In this document: positions 2,560 to 48,031 of the stretch, piece by piece | Layout of the letters: each line of letters opens with the position of its first letter | Position numbering within the stretch: position 1 is the first letter of the stretch | NCBI GenBank assembly: GCA_951406725.2 | Contig: OX597816.1 | Coordinates: 177,072,001 to 177,136,000, forward strand | Origin: Octopus vulgaris | Lineage: Eukaryota | Length of the DNA: 64,000 nucleotides | Direction of reading: 5' to 3' | Program-made: the position numbers and the translations under genes | Notes under the pieces: model-generated | What the model was told of the DNA's origin: nothing | Seen by the model: the letters and a program-made list of their open reading frames with translations, nothing else | Databases searched by the model: none

Positions 2560-4009
2560 TTTGTATATACACAAACAAATATTTCTCTTTTTTATATACA
2601 AATATCAAATATTTTTGTCTCTTAATTTAAATCATCTTTAGACATCTAGTCAATCATAAGATTCTTTTAGCATTTGCTTTTATTTCCTGAATATTTCTTT
2701 CAATGATTGCCAACTTTATTGTTTAAGTTTTATTTGGGAATTGGAGAAGTGAAACTCTCAAAATCTGAACTTTTAGTTTTAGAAATATGATATATTTTGA
2801 TACTCTGTTTTTAGAATTGATTATTCACTTTTCTTTTTATCTCCACTCTGAAATTTTTGCATTTAAGCATTCATTCACTCTCACTCACACACACGAGTAC
2901 TCACACACACACACACACACACACATGGATAGCTAAGTGGTTAAGAAGTCTGCTTCAGAATCATATGGTTTAAGGTTCACTCTAACTGTATGGAACCATC
3001 AGCTTGTGTCTTTTGCAACAACTGTGTGTTGACCAATGTCTTTTGAATGAAATGGAACACTGGAAGAAGTCCATCATATATAAGTGTGAGTGAATTCCCT
3101 TGACTTCATATGTGTATGTAAATTGTAAACAAAGGTCATCACACAAAAACTATTGCAATCTTTCAAATAACATATCCAGCCATTGAGCAGTTCATTATTT
3201 AAAGAACTAGGGAAAATGTTAAGTGACTTGGAAACAAAAGAGGTTGTAGCGAGTTGGTGAAACATTTTATGCCAATCAGTGAGGTGGTCCTTCTGTGGAT
3301 ATAAAGCCTGTGTGTGTATCAGCACTACCATCTCAGATGTGGGAGCATACTCCCCCACAAGACTCATCTGAACTTTGTAGAAGGGTTTTACTATTTTCTG
3401 AGCCCGAAGATGGAGAAGGCCAGTCTTTGTAATGTAGTCTTTACTTTTGAGACCTTACTCTTTATAGTGTTGATTAATATTCTTTGAATAAATTTCACTT
3501 TATGAAAATAGATTTTAGATGAATTTTTGTAAGATCTTGCAGCCTTAAAATTGATCTTTGACTCCATGTTTTGACTCCATTTGATCAAAAGTGTACATCC
3601 TCTGACATGGGACAAAAAAAAACTATGTGATTACATTTCCATTGCTAAGTCAAAATGTAATCCAAATGTATATTTCGTTTATATTATTTATCAATTATGT
3701 ATAAAGTATGACCCAATTAGAGTAAAATGTTATACTTATGAATTCAGATCAAATTATACAACATGTAGCAACTGTTTTTGCTTTTCCCATTTTCATTTCG
3801 AATGAAATTTCTTTTCATTAGATAAAATACCTACATTTGTAGAGAAAATATTTGCATTATTACAAGTTCTTCCTTCTTTTTTAATCAAACCTTTATGAAT
3901 GAAAAACAGCTCCTTATTGGTGTTGAACATAATGATGCATTGAAAAGCACAAAGGATTTAGTCTACTTCTTTAATTGTTTTGGCATTATCTCCACCCAAC
4001 CTTATAAAG

Positions 4010-4190
4010 TGGGGTTCTAGCAGAGACATTAGAACATTCGATAGAATGTCTTGTATTTGTTCTGGCTCTTTGTGCTTTGAGTTCAAATTCCACTGCAGTT
4101 AACTTTGTCTTTAAACCTTTTAAAGTGAATAAATAAGTACCAGTCAAGTACTGGAGTTGATTTCCTTGCTCTATCTCTCCCTCTCAAAAT
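4010..4190 (+). mobile_element. Decayed SINE, group X
   Basis: GAGTTCAAATTCC B-box followed by diverged CTTTG..TTT..AATAAGTACCAG domain shared with younger copies; ends approximate. Confidence 0.6.
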
Positions 4191-6052
4191 TGACTATGCA
4201 ACACTGCCAGGGACCATACACAATGTCTATGATTTTAGGAATAATAGAACCTATTGACATAATTTAAAATCTCTATTAGGCCTGGGAAATGTCCCTCACA
4301 TTCCAAGAATTAGTAGTTGCAGATGCTGACCTCCAGCTTTGTATAACAACAACAACAACAGTAATAGTGCCAGTGCACACAATTTTATCAATTCCAAACA
4401 ATAAAAGGCAAAGATAATTCCAATAAGATTTGAATTCAGAACATAAATGGATGTATCTAAATACTAAAAGGTAATTATCCTATTTGGTGCTCCAATGATT
4501 CTGCCGAATTTGTAGGGTTGTGTAGTATAGAAATATATTACTGGTATTTATTCATCAATCCTAGAGAGATAAAAAGTGAAGTCAACTCTGATGAGATTTG
4601 AACTTTGAATACAAAAAGATGAAGATATTATTAGGTCAAACCTCTACGGCTGTACCCTTGGTATCACTTCACTTCTTTTATTTTGTTATCTACAGTTTTA
4701 TGGTCTGGTGATAAGATCTCAATTTTTTTTCCTTTTCTCCAAAAAAGGACAAACATCCAAATCTTTAGTCCTCTCTTCTTTCTCATGTCATAAAATTTAT
4801 TTCACTGTTTGAACTATTTGTATTACTTTCTGCCAACACAGACCATGACTAGTTTTTCCCAGATTCTGCTGTTTTATTATGTATTGCTAAGCATTTAATG
4901 TGTTGTTGTTCTATTCTAGTCAGTTTGCAGCCTTAAAGGCAATTTCTGTTGGCTGTGCTTTAAAGTCTCAGGCTTTCAGGGGATGAAAATAAGGTTTTCT
5001 GAGACTCATAATTTTTTTTCCCCAAGTGCACTAGTAGTATAAATTAATCAAAATAGATTGTAACAATAATTGAAACTGCATCCCCAGCATGTAAGAAATT
5101 TACTATTTAATTTGCAGCATTAATAAAAATGGTTGGTAAAACAAAAGAACAAATATTGTAGCTATTGATAACCAAACAAATAAATCAATATTAAAAAGGT
5201 TTCTAATTGAATTAAATTCTCTTCGCTCTTTTTAATGATAAATAATATCTTTCCTTTAACTAGACACAACGTAAATTTGAAGAAGAGAAGGAAGTTATCA
5301 ATTCAGTCTGCCTATAAGTAATGGTATTAATTTTCTGTATAATGTATTACACAGAAAATTAATTTTAAGTGTGGAAACATATTTAATCTTGCTGTAATTT
5401 CATCCCTAAACTCACTGCTTATTTAGACACTCAGAAAACCAATTTTTGACATGGTTTCAACTCTTGCTTATAGATTTTCCTTTAATTTCCTTCAAAAGTT
5501 TCTTTGGAAAAGGCATGAATGTCTTTACTCAAATTTCCTAATGTCAAATATTTAAAGCTTTAAGTTAAACTGAAGGGATTAACTGCTTACTCCTCTTATA
5601 TATGCCGAAGTATTCAGTATGGTCTTCCAGCTAGCTGAGACATAATACATGTCACACACATTACATTTGTGGTCTCCCTTAATCTTTTGACCTATACATA
5701 CATCCACCGGCCTAAATAAATCAGGACTGACCTTGGGCTACACAACAATGAAAAAATCCTTAGAACAAATCTGAAAAATTAAGATCAAAACATATTTTAT
5801 ATACGACATCATATAAAATGCGATATTCGTGTTACTACATAAGGCTATATGATCCCCATACACTGTAAAGTGATCTTTGTTCCAATTTTGATTAATGAAA
5901 TTTATTAATTTCAAACACATCTGTTCAAACACATAAACATACACACCCTCAAGCTCACACACACACACACATACACACACATACAGCATATACACATGCA
6001 CAAAATATTAATTTGTGCAAGATTTATTTATTGTTTTTTATTCTTAAGTTAT

Positions 6053-8317: not shown

Positions 8318-8348
<31 letters not shown>

Positions 8349-8361
8349 TGTATATGATATA

Positions 8362-8759
8362 TCTTTATATAGAAAAGAGAAGTTGTGTGTCTGTCTCCTA
8401 CGATTTAGATTCCTAACTACTCCCACATTTTGCAGTGCAGTTTAACCAAAAGTGGGTATCTTATAGTTGTGATTTATATCGAGCCCTTTTGAGTATTAGC
8501 ACACGTCTACGATGAGTCTATGATTTAAAAAAAAATTTACCATCATTTTTTTCCATTTTAATGCATTTTTTCGCTATTATATAAGGGAAGTAACTCTCTA
8601 AAAATGTCTACGATGAGTCAACGATTTAAAAAAAAATTTACCATAATTTTTTTTCCATTTTTAATGCATATTTTTGCTATTTTTTGGCTATAACTCTCTA
8701 AAAATGCTTATATAGTTATTTCTCTTACAAACCTGAGCAACGCCAGGCGATACTGCTAG
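8362..8759 (+). mobile_element. Non-autonomous Helitron with two internal ~100-bp units
   Basis: A|TC start, hairpin CCTGAGCAACGCCAGG, CTAG|T end. Confidence 0.9.
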
Positions 8760-8767
8760 TATATATA

Positions 8768-8814
<47 letters not shown>

Positions 8815-12113: not shown

Positions 12114-12630
12114 TATACATATATGCATATGCACACATATACACACACACACACCCATATACATATACAGGTCAATAAAAATGCCGCCAAATTGATATAA
12201 AAGTGACTGTTTAGTAAATGTGTTTACTTTATCTTTGCACCATTCTCCTCCTGAGTCAATCATAAATATTTAGGTTGGAGATTCCTTCACAATTTCAGGC
12301 CATTAACAGCAGAACTATTTTCTACATGTGTTTGTGTGCTTGTGTGTGTGTGTGTGCATGTGTAAGTGTTTTCTTTTTTAATGGTACCACTGTGATACAA
12401 CTAAGACATCAACACAATGTAACAAACTTTTCTTCTCAAATAACTGGAGTTTTCTGAAATAATTCCAGGTCAACATTTAATTTACATATATATGCATAGA
12501 CACATGTATAGATGAATATTTAAAATGTACACCCGCAAACATATTGATAAAGTTAGTAACTATGGTGGCGTACCTAGAGGTTTCACTGCCCAGGGAAGCT
12601 CCTCAGCTTTGCATCCTACTTTATGATAAA

Positions 12631-12927
12631 CTAGCAGTATCGCCCGGCGTTGCTCGGGTTTGTAAGGGAAATAACTATATAAGCATTTTTAGAGAGTTAT
12701 AGCCAAAAAATAGCAAAAAAATGCATTAAAAATGGAAAAAAAATGATGGTAAATTTCTTTAAAAATCGTAGACTCATCGTAGACGCGCGCTAATACCCAG
12801 AAGGGCTCGATATGAATCACGACTATAAGATACCCGCTTTTGGTTACACTGCACCGCAAAATGTGGGAGTAGTTAGGAATCTAAATCGTAGGAGACAGAC
12901 ACACAACTTCACTTTTATATATAAAGA
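12631..12927 (-). mobile_element. Non-autonomous Helitron, shortest form (one internal unit)
   Basis: A|CTAG plus hairpin at left end, GA|T at right end. Confidence 0.9.
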
Positions 12928-13047
12928 TATGATACATCTCAAAACTGCTGCCCAAAGTGGAATATCTCCCTTTTACATATACAAGTGAATAATATATTAA
13001 CATTTCTGAACACAAAAAACACACACACAATTGTTGTTACTAAATAA

Positions 13048-17578: not shown

Positions 17579-18868
17579 CGAGGGGCGTTCAATAAGTAAT
17601 GCCTCTGACCCACTTCCCATAGCAGTAGAGCTACGAAACTTGGCACAGTTATTAGTCTTTTTCTACATAGGAACCACCCAGAGTTACACATTTCTCCCAT
17701 CGTTTGATGCAGCTCTGCAGACCGTTTTTGTAGAAGACCCCAGCTTGGTCCTCCAACCACGACGTGACTTCAGAAATCAAGGCTGCATCATCTGGGAAAC
17801 GCTTTCCTTTCAAAAACAACTTCATAGCTGGGAAGAGGTGAAAATCAGAGGGTGCAAGGTCAGGAGAGTAGGGGGGATGAGGGAGGAGTTCATAGCCACA
17901 GGCCTGTGCTTCTGATCTGGCGACACACAAGTTGTGGACCGGAGTGTTGTCCTGCAGGAGGAGGATGCCTTTGCTGATCTTGCCCCGCCTCTTGATTTTG
18001 ATAGCTTCTCTTAATTTCTTCAAAAGTGAAGCATAATAGGCTCCTGTAATTGTGGTACCCTTTGCCAGGAAATCTGTCATCACTACTCCATCCTGGTCCC
18101 AGAAGACTGTGAGCATGACCTTGCCAGAGGAGGGCTGCACCCTTGCCTTCTTTGGAGGAGGTGAGTCACGGTGCTTCCACTGCATTGACTGGGCTTTGGT
18201 CTCTGGATCATAGTGATGGACCCAGGTTTCATTCTGTGCAATCAGTCTTTTGAAAAATTTTGACTCATCTTCTTGGCACATCTCCAAATTCATCCTCGAA
18301 CACTCGACGCGTTCTTGCTTCTGGAAAGGTGTGAGCAACCTGGGAATCCATCTGGCAGACACCTTTTGCATATGCAAATGGTCATGAATGATAGTTTCCA
18401 CAGACCCGGTACTAATCTTGACCTCATGGGCTATTTGGGGAATAGTTATGCGTCGATCTTCCAAAATGGCAGCCTCAACTTGATGGACAATGGCAGAAGG
18501 GGGGGCGACCAGATCTGGAAGCTGTTTCCACAGAGTTCCGACCATGTTTGAATTCACGATGCCAGCGTTTTACAAGGTCATATGATGGGGCATCATCACC
18601 ATAAGTTACTTTCATTTCATCAAAAGTCTCTCGTGGTGTGCGTCCTTTCAAATACAAAAACCGGATCACTGCTCGACACTCAACAGGCTCCATTTCACAC
18701 TTGACTCTGTTCAAACACCTGTAAATCAGAAACCACAATTAGTTCAGAGCTGTAATTTGCCACTTAATCTATAGAGATATAAATAATTGCACATTATTTA
18801 TCTAGATCAATCAGCTAGATCAATCAACTGCAAGTGGGTCAGGGGCATTACTTATTGAACGTCTCTTG
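17579..18868 (-). mobile_element. Full-length mariner (DD34D), irritans-like termini
   Basis: TA TSD at 17577-17578 and 18869-18870; 37-bp TIRs with 4 mismatches; 1290 bp; inserted in a family 2 MITE remnant. Confidence 0.95.
17652..18693 (-). pseudogene. Mariner transposase with one frameshift and first catalytic Asp changed to Asn
   Basis: MEPVECRAVIRFL start; frameshift at the G-run near 18500; motifs WIPRLL, AQNETW (normally DETW), QDN, YSPDLAPSDF with 34-aa spacing. Confidence 0.92.
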
Positions 18869-19994: not shown

Positions 19995-20438
19995 ACACAC
20001 ACACATACACTAGTGTGAACATGCTATCTTTAAGACAGTATGTTTTACATTGGTTTGATGATATCATTGTATCATATATTCCTATTGTGTATATGTTTAA
20101 GTATGCATATGGTATGCATATGCATGTGGGAAGAATGCTGGCAAAACATGCAACATGAATAAAGCTTGGACATCAATAATGAAAAAGATAAAGTAGAGCA
20201 ATAAGATGAAATGCAATTATGCTAAAAGGACAGGCATTTAAAAAGCAATGAGAAATTACAACCTAATTACTGCCAATAAATATATAATGGAAAAATTATA
20301 CAAAATGCATAAATAGAAGATGAGTAAAGCAGCGGCAGAGTTTAGGTTGCTAGTTATCTGTAGATTTACTCCAGGAACTTTGCAGAGGTGGTTGGGGTGA
20401 CAGTATTAATTAAATAGGAGATAGAATGTGTATTAGAC

Positions 20439-20500
20439 TTTATTGAGTACAACACATATTTTGAGCCATTGTTCTGGGTCTTTTCTGGTACATCAATAAA
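20439..20500 (-). ncRNA. Decayed type I hammerhead, left arm
   Basis: Minus strand TTTATTGATGTAC-CAGAAAA-GACCCA-GAACAA-TGGCTC-AAAATATGT-GTT-GTACTCAATAAA; stem I intact, core mutated. Confidence 0.5.
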
Positions 20501-20639
20501 AAAAGTCACCCTAGAGACTTGTTGTGTTGGCTTGCTTACTGCTGTCCATCAAATTTGAGAATGAATAAAAAAACAAAGAAAAATTATTGAAACACGAATC
20601 TATGCACATATTTATGTATGTTATGTATGTATATTTATG

Positions 20640-20690
<51 letters not shown>

Positions 20691-20694
<4 letters not shown>

Positions 20695-21035
20695 TGGCAT
20701 GTAAGAGAACTTTCCGTTTCGCGACCGTTGCCAGTACCGCCCCGTTTCGTGTCCGTTGCCAGCCTCGCCTGGCCCTCGTGCCGGTGGCACATAAAAAGCA
20801 CCATCCGTTCGTGGCCGTTTGCCAGCTCTGTCTGGCACCAGTGCAGGTGGCACGTAAAAAGCACCCACTACACTCACGGAGTGGTTGGCGTTAGGAAGGG
20901 CATCCAGCCGTAGAAACACTGCCAGATTTGACTAGGCCTGATGAAGCCTTCTGGCTTCACAGACCCCAGTAGAACCGTCCAACCCATGCTAGCATGGAAA
21001 ACGGACGCTAAACGATGATGATGATGATGATGATG

Positions 21036-21036
<1 letters not shown>
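20691..21036 (+). mobile_element. 3' UTR of an RTE-clade LINE
   Basis: Tandem GGTGGCAC(G/A)TAAAAAGCACC units, GTTAGGAAGGGCATCCAGC, CCAACCCATGCTAGCATGG, (GAT)n tail; the same tail follows RTE coding remnants at 48437-48760. Confidence 0.8.
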
Positions 21037-21071
<35 letters not shown>

Positions 21072-21074
<3 letters not shown>

Positions 21075-21243
21075 TGCAGGAGTGGCTGTGTGGTAGGTAG
21101 CTCGCTAACCAACCACATGGTTCTGGGTTCAATCCTACTGCGTGGCATCTTGGGCAAGTGTCTTCTGCTATAGCCCCAGGCCGACCAATGCCTTGTGAGT
21201 GGATTTGGTAGATGGAAACTGAAAGAAGCCTGTCGTATATATG

Positions 21244-21278
<35 letters not shown>

Positions 21279-21490
21279 TTGTGTGTCTGTGTTTGTCCCC
21301 CTAGCATTGCTTGACAACCGATGCTGGTGTGTGTTTACGTCCCCGTCACTTAGCGGTTTGGCAAAAGAGACTGATAGAATAAGTACTGGGCTTACAAAGA
21401 ATAAGTCCCGGGGTCGATTTGCTCCACTAAAAGGCGGTGCTCCAGCATGGCTGCAGTCAAATGACTGAAACAAGTAAAAGAGTAAAAGAG
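21072..21490 (+). mobile_element. Full-length SINE group Y
   Basis: Same structure as 13048-13500. Confidence 0.93.
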
Positions 21491-21752
21491 TATATGCACA
21501 TGTGTACCTGTATATATGAGTTTGTATACATCTATACGTCCATATGTGTGTATGTGCATGTATCTAGATGTATGTATATGCATATGTGGAAGTGTGCATG
21601 TATATGTCTGTATATATATATATGTGTGTGTATGTGTGTCTATATCTCTGTGCATGTATGCATCTACACATGAACACAAAAAATTTGTCTATTATCTTCC
21701 TTTCGCCTTTTACGTTCTTTTTTCTTTCTCAGCATAAGCTGATTATATATAA

Positions 21753-22263
21753 CTAGCAGTATCGCCCGGCGTTGCTCGGGTTTGTAAGGGAAATAACTAT
21801 ATAAGCATTTTTAGAGAGTTACTTCCTTTATAGATGCCAATTCGGGCTTTCTTAGCCATTTCTGTTTTGATGTCTTCAAGCCATGAAGTCGTTGTTCTAA
21901 AAGAACGCTGGTCTCCTTGACAATGCTTTACGACGTTGATTTCCTTACACTCCCTTCCCCACAGCTTCACGAGGGAGGGAAGAAGGGGGAGAAGCAAACA
22001 GGTGCAGCTGTGAGCGTGGACGCCAACTCCGCCGCCATCGACACACGAAAAATTATGCATTAAAATGGAATAAAAAATGATGTTAAATTATTTTTAAAAT
22101 CGTAGACTCATCGTTGACGCGCTAATACCCAGACGGGCTCGATATGAATCACGACTATAAGATACCCGAATTTGGTTAAACTGCACCGCAAAATGTGGGA
22201 GGAGTTAGGAATCTAAATCGAAGGGGACAGACACTCACACAACTAGAGTTTTATATATATAGA
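21753..22263 (-). mobile_element. Non-autonomous Helitron, long form
   Basis: A|CTAG and hairpin, GA|T; same length (511 bp) and same insert as 2049-2559. Confidence 0.9.
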
Positions 22264-22409
22264 TTTTATCTAAACTGGAATGTATACATTCCATGCTCAT
22301 ATTTGAATATTTTGCATCTCAATAATTTTTCTTTGCTTTTATTCATCCTCAAATTTGACGGGCATATAGCAGTAAGCAAGCCAACACAAGGAATCTCTTG
22401 TGCGACATT

Positions 22410-22469
22410 TTTATTGATGTACCTAATGAGACACAGAACAATGGGTTGAAATGTGTTATACTTGATAAA
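22410..22469 (+). ncRNA. Decayed type I hammerhead, right arm
   Basis: TTTATTGATGTAC-CTAATGA-GACACA-GAACAA-TGGGTT-GAAATGT-GTT-ATACTTGATAAA; core one change from CTGATGA. Confidence 0.6.
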
Positions 22470-22518
22470 GTCTAATACACATTCTATCTCCTATTTTATT
22501 AATACTATATATATACAC

Positions 22519-22822
22519 GGAGGTGCAATGGCCTCGTGGTTAGGGCAGCGGACTCGCGGTCGCAGGATCGCGGTTTCGATTCCCAGACCAGACGTTGTGT
22601 GTGTTTATTGAGCGAAAACACCTAAAAGCTCCACGAGGCTCCGGCAGGGGGTGGTGATCCCTGCTGTACTCTTTCACCACTCTTTCTCCCACTCTTTCTT
22701 CTGTTGGCCTGCTCGCTTAGCCAGCGGGGTGGCGTCATTCAAAGGCTAAAACAATGCGAACGCATTGTGACCAGCGATGTGTAACAACATCTGATGGTCT
22801 GGTCGGTCACATGATCACGTGA
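22519..22822 (+). mobile_element. SINE group A, tail type 2
   Basis: Same tRNA-like head as type 1 but a different 3' half ending TCACATGATCACGTGA next to (TA)n. Confidence 0.9.
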
Positions 22823-23017
22823 TATATATATACACACATACACACACACACACACACACAAGCACTACAATGCATTTTTAATAGAATTAAACACAATATC
22901 ATTGTAAATATCGTTATTCTATTTACATACATGTGCAGTGAAAAATTATCTGCATCTACATACATACATACATAGAAAGAATTAATTCCACTTCCTCAAT
23001 GGTACTTTGTCTTTCAT

Positions 23018-32122: not shown

Positions 32123-32485
32123 TTGTAAGGGAAATAACTATATAAGCATTTTTAGAGATGTAAAGTATAATAGCCATCTCAATATGGCTAACCACAAAGG
32201 TTTTTACGTTCTGTAGCTTTTTACGTTCTGAGATTTAATAATAAACTTTTAGAGAGTTACTTCCCTTATATATGCCAAAAATGCATTAAAAATGGAAAAA
32301 ATTGATGGTAAATTTTTTTTAAATCGTAGACTCATCGTAGACGTGCGCTAATACCCAGAAGGGCTCGATATGAATCACGACTATAAGATACCTGGTTTTG
32401 GTTAAACTGCACCACCAAATGTGGGAGTAGTTAGGAATCTAAATCGTAGGAGACAGACAGCACACAACCTTACTTTTATATATAT
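32123..32485 (-). mobile_element. Helitron lacking its 3' hairpin and CTAG, with a different internal insert
   Basis: Shared body; extra ~90 bp at about 32158-32247. Confidence 0.8.
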
Positions 32486-33139
32486 CATATATTACAATAC
32501 ATTATAAACAATTCATTACGGTAGATTTAATTTTATAAATTTTAAACCCACAATCAATACAAACAGATACAATATTGTTCTTCTTCATACACACAAGTCC
32601 ATGCGTGTGGGCAACAAATAGAAGCAACATGTGCATATATATACATACGTTCAAATATACACTAATATCTATATAAGGATTTTTTCTTTACGTCACAGTT
32701 AAATTATACATATATGTATGTTTGTCCATCGAATTAATATGATTTCAGAGAATATTTTTATAGAATATTTCATAAAAAGAAAACATTTGTTAAGAAATAA
32801 TAGATTAGCTATAAGAGCCATGTTATATGTTGTATATTAATATTTTAGAATTTCAAAATTATTGGGGGTTAGGGAGCGATTATTTTTAATCATAAGCTAT
32901 ATCCAATTGGTTAACAAATTGGAATTTCTATGTCTCAGTTACGGTTAGTTAATAGAAGACCGAATGATTAAGTAAATATACCGTGTTAAACTCTCGTAAT
33001 TACAATGTATATTCTTAAATTAACTTTCAAATATTAATCGTAAACAAAGAATTCTTACAATAAGCAATACAAGTGTAATTTAATATATGAGAATTTATCT
33101 ACAAAATTTAATAAAGCATATAAAAATTCAACCATATGT

Positions 33140-40310: not shown

Positions 40311-40427
40311 TAGAGACATTAGTAATATTCCAAATCAAATATATTAATTTCTTGAAACTCTCTCTCTCTCTCTCTCTCTCTCACTCACACACACAACATC
40401 CATCCACCCACACAGATATATAAATTA

Positions 40428-40825
40428 CTAGCAGTATCGCCCGGCGTTGCTCGGGTTTGTAAGGGAAATAACTATATAAGCATTTTTAGAGAGTTATAGC
40501 CAAAAAATAGCAAAAAAATGCATCAAAAATGGAAAAAAAATTATGGTAAATTTTTTAAAAAATCGTTGACACATCGTAGATATTTTTAGAGAGTTACTTC
40601 CCTTATATAATAGCAAAAAAATGCATTAAAATGGAAAAAAATGATGGTAAATTTTTTTTTAAATCGTAGACTCATCATAGATGTGCGCTAATTAACAGAA
40701 GGTCTCAATATGAATCACGACTATAAGATACCCGGTTTTGGTTAAACTGCACTGCAAAATGTGGGAGTAGTTAGGAATCTAAATCGTAGAAGACAGACAC
40801 ACAACCTCACTTTCATATATAAAGA
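40428..40825 (-). mobile_element. Non-autonomous Helitron, two-unit form
   Basis: A|CTAG, hairpin, GA|T. Confidence 0.9.
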
Positions 40826-41033
40826 TGTGGAAGAAACATTACATATATAATAACAGCATGTATGTGTGTAAGGTGGGTAAAGTAGAAAGCAACTGTGGAA
40901 GGGAAAGACAAAGACAGAGGCATAAGTGGTAAAAGCTGAACTCAGGATTTGAGCTTTGTGCAAAAGACGATGAAAGAACATGTAGCAAGATGGCCAGGAC
41001 CCAGCCAACCAAAGCTGGAAGTTGTATAGAGAA

Positions 41034-44194: not shown

Positions 44195-44507
44195 AATTTA
44201 GTTTCTATCACAAAAACAAAGCTGACAACCAAACTATTTTTGTTGCAAGCAAAATCTTTTTAATAAAGTTAGGTTTTCTGCTCCAAGAAAATATTTCATC
44301 TTAGTCAAAAAATATTTATTTCTAACATAGTCAATTGATACTTATTTTAACAAATGTGGAAGGATAAAAGAATCAAGGGTTATGAAGTCAGAAGGAAAAG
44401 GTAGATGAGTAAAATATTTCAAGGCATTTTCTCTCTCATCCGATTGATTAAGCTAATCCACTGTCCTTTATAGTGTTTCTCAAATATATTGCTAGCTATA
44501 ACATATA

Positions 44508-44902
44508 TCTTTATATATAAAAGAGGTTGTGTGTCTGTCTCCTACGATTTAGATTCCTAGCTACTCCCACATTTTGCGGTGCAGTTTAACCAAAACCGGG
44601 TATCTTATAGTCGTGATTCATATCGAGCCCTTCTGGGTATTAGTGCGCGTCTACGATGAGTCTACGATTTAAAAAAAAATTTACCATCATTTTTTTCCAT
44701 TTTAATGCATTTTTTCGCTATTATATAAGGGAAGTAACTCTCTAAAAATGTCTACGATGAGTTAACGATTTTTTAAAAAAATGACCATAATTTTTTTCCA
44801 TTTTTAATGCATTTTTTTGCTATTTTTTGGCTATAACTCTCTAAAAATGCTTATATAGTTATTTCCCTTACAAACCCGAGCAACGCCGGGCGATACTGCT
44901 AG
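44508..44902 (+). mobile_element. Non-autonomous Helitron, two-unit form
   Basis: A|TC, hairpin, CTAG|T. Confidence 0.9.
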
Positions 44903-44939
44903 TATGTTATAAACTATGAAGGTATACACAACATAAACA

Positions 44940-45283: not shown

Positions 45284-45783
45284 GAAACACGTCTATGTTA
45301 TATTCATATCACCATAACTATGGTATCAGTTGTATCCACCTCTAAGAAGCAAAATTATCATAGATACCGTCCCTTATCTTACAACTAACTAAAAATGTAA
45401 AATCTATCCTCTGGCTGACTTATTATGGATTAAAACACATCTTAGGTTGAAAGCTTTTGTAATCTTGGACAAAAAACATGACACAGAAAGGATAATCACA
45501 ACATTTATAAAAATGTAATTTCTTCACCAGATTTAAAAGTTGTGTGTTTTTGTTAGTAGTTTACTGGTATAGATTATTTTTATAAGCTTTTTGGCAATTT
45601 ACATATATTAGTGTTGACCCAGACATGACTGGCAGATATTCGGCAATTCAAAATCAATAATAAAGTAATTTACCAATCAACTAACAAATTTTCTGATTAA
45701 AATCTAAAAGAGATCAGTGTTGAGGATTTTTTGCTATAAATCTACTTAAACAAACACTAGAAGGTTATCTAGAAACATTAAAC

Positions 45784-48031
45784 TGCTCTTCACCACAACT
45801 CCTGAAGTGGTTATCAATTGCACTACGGAGGAACCTCTAGGTGACTCTGATCATGCTATGATCATCGCCAATCTGGCTCTTGCGGGCAACAAAAACCTGA
45901 ACCATCTCCAATCTGTTTCCTTCGATTGGAAGAGAGCAGATTGGAACCTGTACCATACTGAACTACAGCACCCAAACTGGCGTGAATTCTACAACTCTGG
46001 AGATGTGAATACTATACTCCAGAGTATCCTGGACTCAATATGGGCAGCATGTGCAGCATCAGTGCCACGTAAACAGAAAAAGAAGAACCGCCCCAAAAGG
46101 GCAATTTGGGAAACTTCAGCGGTCCGACTTGCCAGGAAGGAACGTCGGACTGCTGAACAGGAATACAAGTTGCATAAATATATCTTCCGACCATCTCAAG
46201 CAAGTGAAAAAAAAAGCAGTGCTTGAATTTGAACAGTGCATAGCAGCCAATCCTGATAGCAAGGTTTTCTGGAAATATGTGCATTCAAAGCAGAGACCTC
46301 ACTCTCCAGTGGGCCCTCTTTGCAACCCTCACACAAACCAGATCACTGACGACCCCAAGGAATGCGCAGAACTCATTGCCGAGTGCTATGCAAACATATT
46401 CACTGTTGAAAGTCAAAATGTACCATCTTCACCATCACTAACAGCAAATTCCATAACAACTATGGAATTTACACCTGCATTGCTGCGACATCACCTTCAA
46501 AATAAGTGCAACTATGCCTCCCCTGGTCTTGATGGAGTTACATACCTGCTTCTCAAACGTGGCAGGTACTTCCTTTTACACCAGCTTTCTATTTTCTTCC
46601 AGTACTGTCTCAACAATGGTGCTACTCCGGAGCAGTGGAAAACTGCCAGTGTCATTCCTCTGTTCAAAAAGGGCGACCGCACATCACCTGTCAACTATCG
46701 CCCAGTCAGTCTCACTAGCTGTATTGCAAAACTGATGGAATCGTGTGTCAGAGAAACACTTTGGAACTTCTGGAGCTCTCACAGTCTCATCCGACCCTCA
46801 CAATATGGATTTGTCCCTAACTCCAGCTGCAGTGATCAGCTTGTCGAGTTCCTTGAGGACATAACTCAAATCACTGACAGTGGCTCATGGGTGGATGTTG
46901 TCTACCTTGACTTTGCTAAGGCTTTTAATTCTGTGCCACACAAAAGGCTTATGGTGAAACTCTCTGCAATGGGTGTGAGGGATGACCTTTTTAACTGGTT
47001 GAAATCCTTCATTCTCAGCCGAAAGGAGGTAGTCACAGTTCTAGGACAGTATTCTACACCATATGAGATGTCATCGGGTGTACCACAGGGATCTGTCCTT
47101 GGTCCCCTCTTGTTTGTGGCATACATTAATGACATAGATGCCAATTTAAAGAATGCCACAGTATTGAACTAGGCAGACGACATCAAGCTGTACCTTGAAA
47201 TCAAGAGGACAGATCCTGATGTCTACAACTCTTTCCTGCAATCAGACCTAGACACAATGCAGTAATGGATCACAGACTGGCAACTGAAACTGGCTGTGGA
47301 CAAGTGTACCACCATGCATTTTGGGAGAAAAAACCCTGCGTCCACATACTTCCTCCACAACACTGATATCAAGAAATCCTCTTGCGAGCGTAACCTAGGC
47401 ATCACTGTCAGCAGTGATTTGCGTTGGACAAAGCATATCTCTAAAATTGTCAAGAAGGCCGAGGGTGTCTTGGCATCACTCTACAAGACTTTTGTTAGCC
47501 GCTCTCCAGCCATCTATTTAAAACTGTATACAGCTATGGTACGACCACACTTGGAATTCGCATCATCAGTTTGGAAACCCTATCTTGCTCAGAACATTGA
47601 CCTCCTGGAATCTGTCCAGAGACGTGCAACCAAACGCATACCCTCCATCAGACACCTACCATATTCTGAGCGCCTTGTTTCCCTGGGCATGGATTCACTG
47701 AAGCTCCGGCGTCTGGCGACGGACTTGGTAAACACCCACAAGGTTATCAACCACCTCACCAACAACAACACTGAACACCTTTTTGATCTCCATGTGTCTA
47801 ACACATGTGGACATGCCTACAAAGTCAGAAAACAGCACAGCTCCCATGACTTTCGGAAACATTTTTTCACGCTCAGAGTTGCTGAAGCATGGAACAAACT
47901 GCCTGCGTCAGTTGTTGACTGCCATGACACTGCATCCTTTAAGGCCCTCATGCTTTCCGAAATCCACCGAAACTACACCTGATTATATATACACTTTAGA
48001 TGAGTTGTAGTGCACCTGAGCACTGTACACA

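Follow-up and report, generated by a model that had tools for sequence, protein, structure and literature searches.

A decayed head-to-head pair of hammerhead repeats with a Penelope-type insertion layout in Octopus vulgaris

Introduction

The closest described counterparts of the locus treated here come from Penelope-like elements (PLEs) and from retrozymes. PLE insertions often include an inverted 5′-truncated copy, carry a tail of 30-40 bp at one end only, and favor (TA)n (PMC8557442); in Adineta, a 31-bp tail sits on one inverted pLTR, head-to-head arrangements form the majority, and palindromes are described at pLTR 5′ ends and at inverted junctions (PMC3846280). In vitro work on a PLE protein showed cleavage of both strands of AT-rich DNA and initiation of reverse transcription within its RNA (PMC11167929). 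Pairs of hammerheads on opposite strands, 100-700 bp apart, were reported from Schistosoma in 2014 (PMC4209133). For animals in general, canonical type I hammerheads are found mostly in non-coding retrozymes, and the canonical form tied to these has a stem II of 4-5 bp, a 2-bp stem III, and a long stem I (PMC7229834). Retrozymes, of which monomers are known, are derived from PLEs in a recent preprint (bioRxiv 10.64898/2026.07.22.740005).

A sequence-only reading of 64 kb of Octopus vulgaris DNA (the whole stretch analyzed, here called the window) had picked out an inverted-repeat element with two outward-facing hammerheads, and had proposed for it an ancestor in the form of a ribozyme-bearing fold-back unit. 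Here, we set the locus against the systems above.

Results

Two inverted arms, each with a damaged hammerhead

The arms and the ribozyme remnants within them are as follows.

20402..20594, minus strand: left arm, a decayed copy of the hammerhead repeat, 3′ end outward (from the arm alignment)
22265..22506, plus strand: right arm, a decayed copy of the hammerhead repeat, 3′ end outward (from the arm alignment and family contigs)
20439..20500, minus strand: left type I hammerhead, damaged, with U4, G8, G12, C15.2, and one stem II pair altered
22410..22469, plus strand: right type I hammerhead, damaged, with G5 changed, two stem III bases missing, and one pair each of stems I and II lost

BLASTN aligns 22319-22506 (plus strand) with 20590-20402 (minus strand) at 83.4% identity over 193 columns (E 5e-52), which bears out the claim of inverted arms of about 200 bp some 1.7 kb apart; no third copy of the arm was found by BLASTN in the 64-kb window. 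The limits first given for the arms were too narrow: at the left, sequence of the same family extends to 20372 or beyond, and at the right it extends inward as far as 22265. Differences occupy 23 of the 184 gap-free arm positions, 14 of them transitions. The GC content of the arms is 31-34%, and stop codons fall in all six frames of each. The right arm retains 2 CpG dinucleotides against 5.7 expected and the left arm none against 6.3, while the Helitron-like element nested between them holds 26 against 23 expected; among the sites listed at which the family majority described below departs from the arm, CpG is regained at 6 of 22. By this comparison many of the arm lesions are CpG decay, though the window as a whole is CpG-poor too (842 observed, 2019 expected).

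Both hammerheads read outward, and the damage to them is mostly different, as had been claimed. On the right, the core reads CTAATGA (G5 to A) and GAAA is intact; 11 of 12 stem I pairs and 5 of 6 stem II pairs are kept, and the predicted cut falls after 22457. On the left, the core reads CAGAAAA, with U4 and G8 changed, and AAAA stands in place of GAAA; stem I is complete (12/12) and stem II again has 5 of 6 pairs. C15.2 is kept in neither arm. A descriptor modeled on the arm motif itself, and hence generous to it, was run with 12 shuffled windows as the control. With at most one core mismatch it gave a single match in the window (22423, in the right arm) against 0 in the 12 shuffled windows, and with at most three mismatches it gave 5, namely both arms and 3 others, against 0-1 per shuffled window. 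The 3 others (18918 and 38215 on the plus strand, 45695 on the minus strand) are unconvincing as hammerheads and look like chance. A strict motif scan of the window found no intact hammerhead, and Rfam returned none at gathering score across the whole window; for 20000-23000 with E values up to 10, it gave microsatellite-driven chance matches and no hammerhead. Folded alone with about 100 nt of context, neither arm formed the hammerhead in the predicted structure. Just downstream of the hammerhead, a segment within 22448-22484 (plus strand) is well conserved and identical in both arms. It can pair with the strand that holds GAAA, stem III, and the cut site, and this hairpin is the lowest-energy one predicted in both arms. 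The segment may be an off-switch built into the family ribozyme, or decay may have produced it.

A dispersed family and its restored hammerhead

Family letters were taken from contigs of the public runs X1 and X15 aligned to the right-arm stretch 22265-22512, using 39 of the 40 family-versus-arm difference rows listed and leaving out a minor second letter at 22407. Run X1 supplied 96 contigs on the right arm, giving depth in all 28 bins from 22265 onward; 1 of them is at least 99% identical to the arm, 9 are 95-99% identical, 24 are 90-95% identical, and 62 fall below 90%. Run X15 supplied 17 further contigs. The right arm is thus a copy of a dispersed family.

The family letters mend what the arms have lost. 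They are G at 22425 (62% of depth), A at 22427, the N7 position (80%), C at 22424, the U4 position (53%), and G at 22458 (85%), and 5 X1 contigs insert C or AC behind 22450; the loose ends of X15 contigs read CCGAAGA-GACC...GGTC-GAAAC and ACGT-GTT-GTAC. The family hammerhead thus read has a C(C/T)GAAGA core, a stem II of 4-5 bp, a 2-bp stem III, a palindromic ACGT tetraloop, and a GUU cut triplet. Cores and stems I-III are all restored in this consensus, and on its letters the family ancestor carried an intact-looking type I hammerhead. With its 2-bp stem III and palindromic tetraloop, this is the canonical metazoan type I form (PMC4209133). U4C is a known natural hammerhead variant of lower activity (PMC3088659). 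Merging the two arms, as the sequence-only reading had done, thus came close and was right about an intact-looking ancestor, but its CTGATGA core gives way to C(C/T)GAAGA, as the merge took the minority T at N7 and lacked C15.2. The complementary lesions of the arms are to be expected of two copies that decayed separately, in good part at CpG sites.

One contig from X1/X15 holds 272 more letters upstream of 22265. Depth climbs toward the 3′ end, and values of about 400-1600 give way to about 2600-4400 over the final 45 nt. The peak at 22463-22507 could come from copies that start near the cut site or from clipping at the right-arm mismatches 22458-22464; the X15 loose ends show such clipping for at least 4 contigs, and nothing is concluded from the peak. 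A switch of strand inside family sequence is seen in two of the 96 X1 contigs, from 22404 and 22408 to 22467, which are the two ends of stem I, although the contigs do not tell the relative orientation. Two other family contigs lack the hammerhead, jumping over 95 nt (22376 to 22472) and 119 nt (22345 to 22465).

Metagenome scans with two short motifs gave 0 matches. In the literature on octopus hammerheads, cephalopod retrozymes, and hammerhead fold-back transposons, no paper on the family was found; the supplements of bioRxiv 10.64898/2026.07.22.740005 could list relatives. The family may be unnamed so far, while the kind of element and its layout are already in print.

Unequal ends and their flanks

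Three stretches border the arms.

20372..20401, minus strand: family sequence on the left only, a candidate PLE-type tail, beyond the first left limit and absent from the right arm
20595..20692, no strand: low-complexity, TA-rich tract bordering the left arm on its inner side (sequence reading)
22507..22860, no strand: (TA)n/(CA)n microsatellite at the end of the right arm, holding a SINE-like insertion (22519 to about 22813; sequence reading)

Past 22506, the family contigs continue with a GC-richer stretch. The 30-nt consensus of this run-on matches the window at 24 of 30 positions starting exactly at 20401 on the minus strand, the next best of 127,942 positions matching at 18 of 30. The outer end of the left arm is therefore at least 30 nt longer than that of the right arm, which stops at 22506 against the TA/CA microsatellite. 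On the inner side it is the right arm that runs on, with 54 nt of further family sequence (22265-22318) up to the Helitron-like element. Each arm, then, holds family sequence that is missing from the other. A weak likeness between 20591-20640 and 22282-22317 was reached by 8 of 300 shuffles, uncorrected.

A target-site duplication (TSD) is not visible in the flanks, nor is there a TA tract on the outer side of the left arm; the two outer flanks are unlike each other (143 of 300 shuffles reach the score). Resumption of the right arm after the SINE at 22519 was considered and rejected for lack of likeness, the score being reached by 143 of 300 shuffles. A tandem unit of about 360 nt at the locus was rejected as well, the left flank being unlike both 21655-21745 (180/300) and 22265-22330 (153/300), and no tandem units of about 150-450 nt were found at the locus. 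In the upstream family part of the right arm, 22276-22293 is a perfect 18-nt palindrome.

Nested repeats between the arms

The sequence-only reading had described the pair as masked by nested insertions, and so it is.

20693..21037, plus strand: nested fragment of a repeat, closed by (GAT)n and holding a 63-nt internal duplication (short window paralogs, 69-89%); presumably RTE
21071..21492, plus strand: nested SINE-like repeat, up to 93% identical to others of its many copies in the window; we take it to be a SINE
21493..21743, no strand: residual spacer, a TG/TA-rich stretch and then about 85 nt (21660-21743) that are possibly more right arm; no likeness to the arms or the left flank
21744..22264, minus strand: nested non-autonomous Helitron-like element abutting right-arm family sequence, with 5′ TC and a 3′ hairpin plus CTAG

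The Helitron-like element shares 96.4% identity with 2048-2569. Both it and the SINE-like repeat differ less from their paralogs than one arm does from the other, and so are probably younger than the arms. Without the nested repeats the spacer comes to 382 nt, mostly microsatellite.

The neighborhood holds further repeats. Helitron-like copies in the window fall into two subfamilies with common ends and different interiors, one made up of 2048-2569 and 21744-22264 and the other of 8338-8770, 12614-12931, 32123-32506, 40414-40849, and 44484-44919, the latter with an internal repeat of about 100 nt. An open frame of 305 amino acids on the minus strand (17652-18569), with the words WIPRLL and YSPDLAP, is transposase-like, and we take it to be of the mariner DD34D kind. 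Three overlapping or adjacent frames on the plus strand (45750-47982) make up a frameshifted LINE ORF2 with the endonuclease end and reverse transcriptase (RT), presumably CR1/L2-like. Upstream of the Helitron-like element and the right arm, 21680-21743 (plus strand) is a pyrimidine-rich tract that ends in CAG and looks like a splice acceptor. Introns are known from PLEs, close to the hammerhead. By eye, no ORF for RT or GIY-YIG endonuclease joined to the arms was recognized at the locus.

Predicted folding of the whole pair

The native 2147-nt stretch was folded as RNA for both strands. The predicted structures hold 167 arm-arm pairs on the plus strand and 172 on the minus strand, so that transcription of the locus, if it occurs, is predicted to give a long dsRNA. 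The sense hammerhead has 53 (plus) and 48 (minus) of its bases paired with the opposite arm in these predictions, and 0 intra-hammerhead pairs either way. Predicted energies are -63 and -56 kcal/mol for the duplex and -7 and -11 kcal/mol for the hammerhead folding by itself.

Discussion

From the perspective of PLE insertions, the layout of this locus is familiar. The 3′ ends point outward and a hammerhead lies near the end, as in the inverted insertions described in PMC8557442 and PMC3846280; the extension of at least 30 nt at one end may correspond to their tail, and the (TA)n beside the right arm to their preferred target. Unlike those, the octopus pair has no recognized RT/GIY-YIG ORF, no direct pLTR pair, and no visible TSD, although TSDs are often not discernible in insertions of this type. 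Moreover, in the PLE papers, the inverted copy is immediately adjacent, whereas here the arms are parted by nested repeats and would still be separated by 382 nt if these were removed. With that spacing, the pair resembles the Cercyon PLEs of Schistosoma, in which two hammerheads on opposite strands likewise lie a few hundred bases apart; but the Cercyon hammerheads are of the minimal form with a long stem II, and the octopus arms are canonical with an extended, bulged stem I (PMC4209133). The motif itself leads to the metazoan non-LTR retrozymes, with which the family shares its dispersal, a GC content below 50%, its apparently non-coding character (as judged from the part seen), and the canonical type I hammerhead; it differs from them (PMC7229834) in having no tandem array at the locus and C at U4 in about half of the family depth. 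Because no tandem unit is seen at the locus, the family is at most a candidate retrozyme.

On balance, and with moderate confidence, we favor the reading that the arms are decayed head-to-head copies of a dispersed, likely non-coding, retrozyme-like type I hammerhead repeat, likely written in one event by PLE enzymes and now likely inactive. The window shows no PLE ORF connected with the arms, and the enzyme is accordingly something we infer. The parent RNA would have come from tandem transcripts cut by the hammerhead, probably helped by dimer folding through the palindromic stem III loop. A PLE GIY-YIG endonuclease would have cut AT-rich DNA, and a PLE reverse transcriptase would have copied the retrozyme-like RNA twice, in opposite orientations, one copy ending at 22506 and the other running at least 30 nt further and so leaving the tail. 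Later insertions and microsatellite growth would have pushed the arms to their present distance, and CpG deamination along with other mutation would have broken both ribozymes. The inverted pair would then be a by-product of insertion and not a working device.

This last point is where we part from the idea of a dedicated fold-back element with fixed inverted termini, from which a transcript in either direction would yield one active sense hammerhead and a long dsRNA. Some of what it calls for is present, as the arms are real, both hammerheads face outward, and the long duplex is predicted. The fixed symmetric termini of a fold-back or MITE-type DNA element are absent: the ends are unequal on both sides, the outer ones by at least 30 nt, no TSD is visible, and the layout is that of the published PLE footprint (PMC8557442, PMC3846280, and PMC4209133). 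The ribozyme half of the idea fails in silico, the predicted duplex sequestering the sense hammerhead, and the pair would silence its ribozyme rather than display it. The antisense arm would, besides, be transcribed first in both directions, and a short palindromic stem III usually needs two sense copies (PMC4209133). Hence a ribozyme-plus-dsRNA design is unlikely, and the fold-back element as a whole is very improbable.

A different proposal keeps the insertion geometry and changes what was inserted, making the arms the 5′-truncated ends (pLTRs) of a protein-coding PLE. PLE pLTRs do contain hammerheads, and the motifs found in genomes are for the most part truncated remnants of PLEs (PMC4209133); the rise of contig depth toward the 3′ end and the contig reaching further upstream of 22265 would also suit it. 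The motif, however, is the canonical type tied to retrozymes in PMC7229834 and not the minimal form with a long stem II, and the 242 nt of the right arm hold no ORF remnant. Identity with the octopus element Hydra-1_Obim was rejected: the hammerhead of the latter (PMC8557442 supplement) is different in sequence, and three arm or family motifs of 10-11 nt gave 0 matches in that supplement file. We regard a coding parent as rather unlikely. Whatever the parent, the pair could have arisen in two steps, either by independent insertions close to each other or by later local inverted duplication of one copy, and here the arms do lie apart, no TSD frames the pair, and TA-rich tracts at this locus attract repeated insertions. 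With a genome size that we assume to be 2.5 Gb, chance alone would give, genome-wide, 0.0004-0.04 head-to-head pairs as close as this one if there were 100-500 copies, 0.2-0.7 with 2000, and 4-18 with 10,000, the copy number being an assumption; the expectation thus stays below 1 up to about 2000 copies, and in its 64 kb the window holds only 2 copies, which lie head-to-head within 1.7 kb of each other. A duplication would be expected to bring host flank along, yet the outer flanks are without likeness, and each arm has family sequence that the other lacks. The letters of the arms bear on their age as well. Of the 18 listed sites at which the right arm departs from the family majority, 11 show the family letter in the left arm, 5 show the right-arm letter there, and 2 show neither; the 5 common letters, 3 of them at CpG sites, may simply mark a subfamily. 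Private changes are about equal in the two arms (roughly 12 and 10 by hand count), which fits two near-identical copies of one age. Two steps therefore seem improbable to us, and the pair is, on these comparisons, probably the outcome of one event rather than of two chance insertions; a single insertion is favored, not proven.

Within the favored reading of one PLE-type insertion, an intriguing possibility is that the extended stem I sets where the copying enzyme turns round; the folded ribozyme would then have a second role in making inverted insertions, as a site of fold-back priming or template switching. It is suggested by the two family contigs that change strand exactly at both ends of stem I, and we put it forward as a doubtful idea that would, if true, supply a testable rule for how Penelope-type inversions form. 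The locus itself is old debris and matters little alone. What it adds is one case of a retrozyme-like hammerhead repeat with a Penelope insertion footprint, in keeping with the idea, already in print, that repeats of this sort are mobilized by PLE enzymes.
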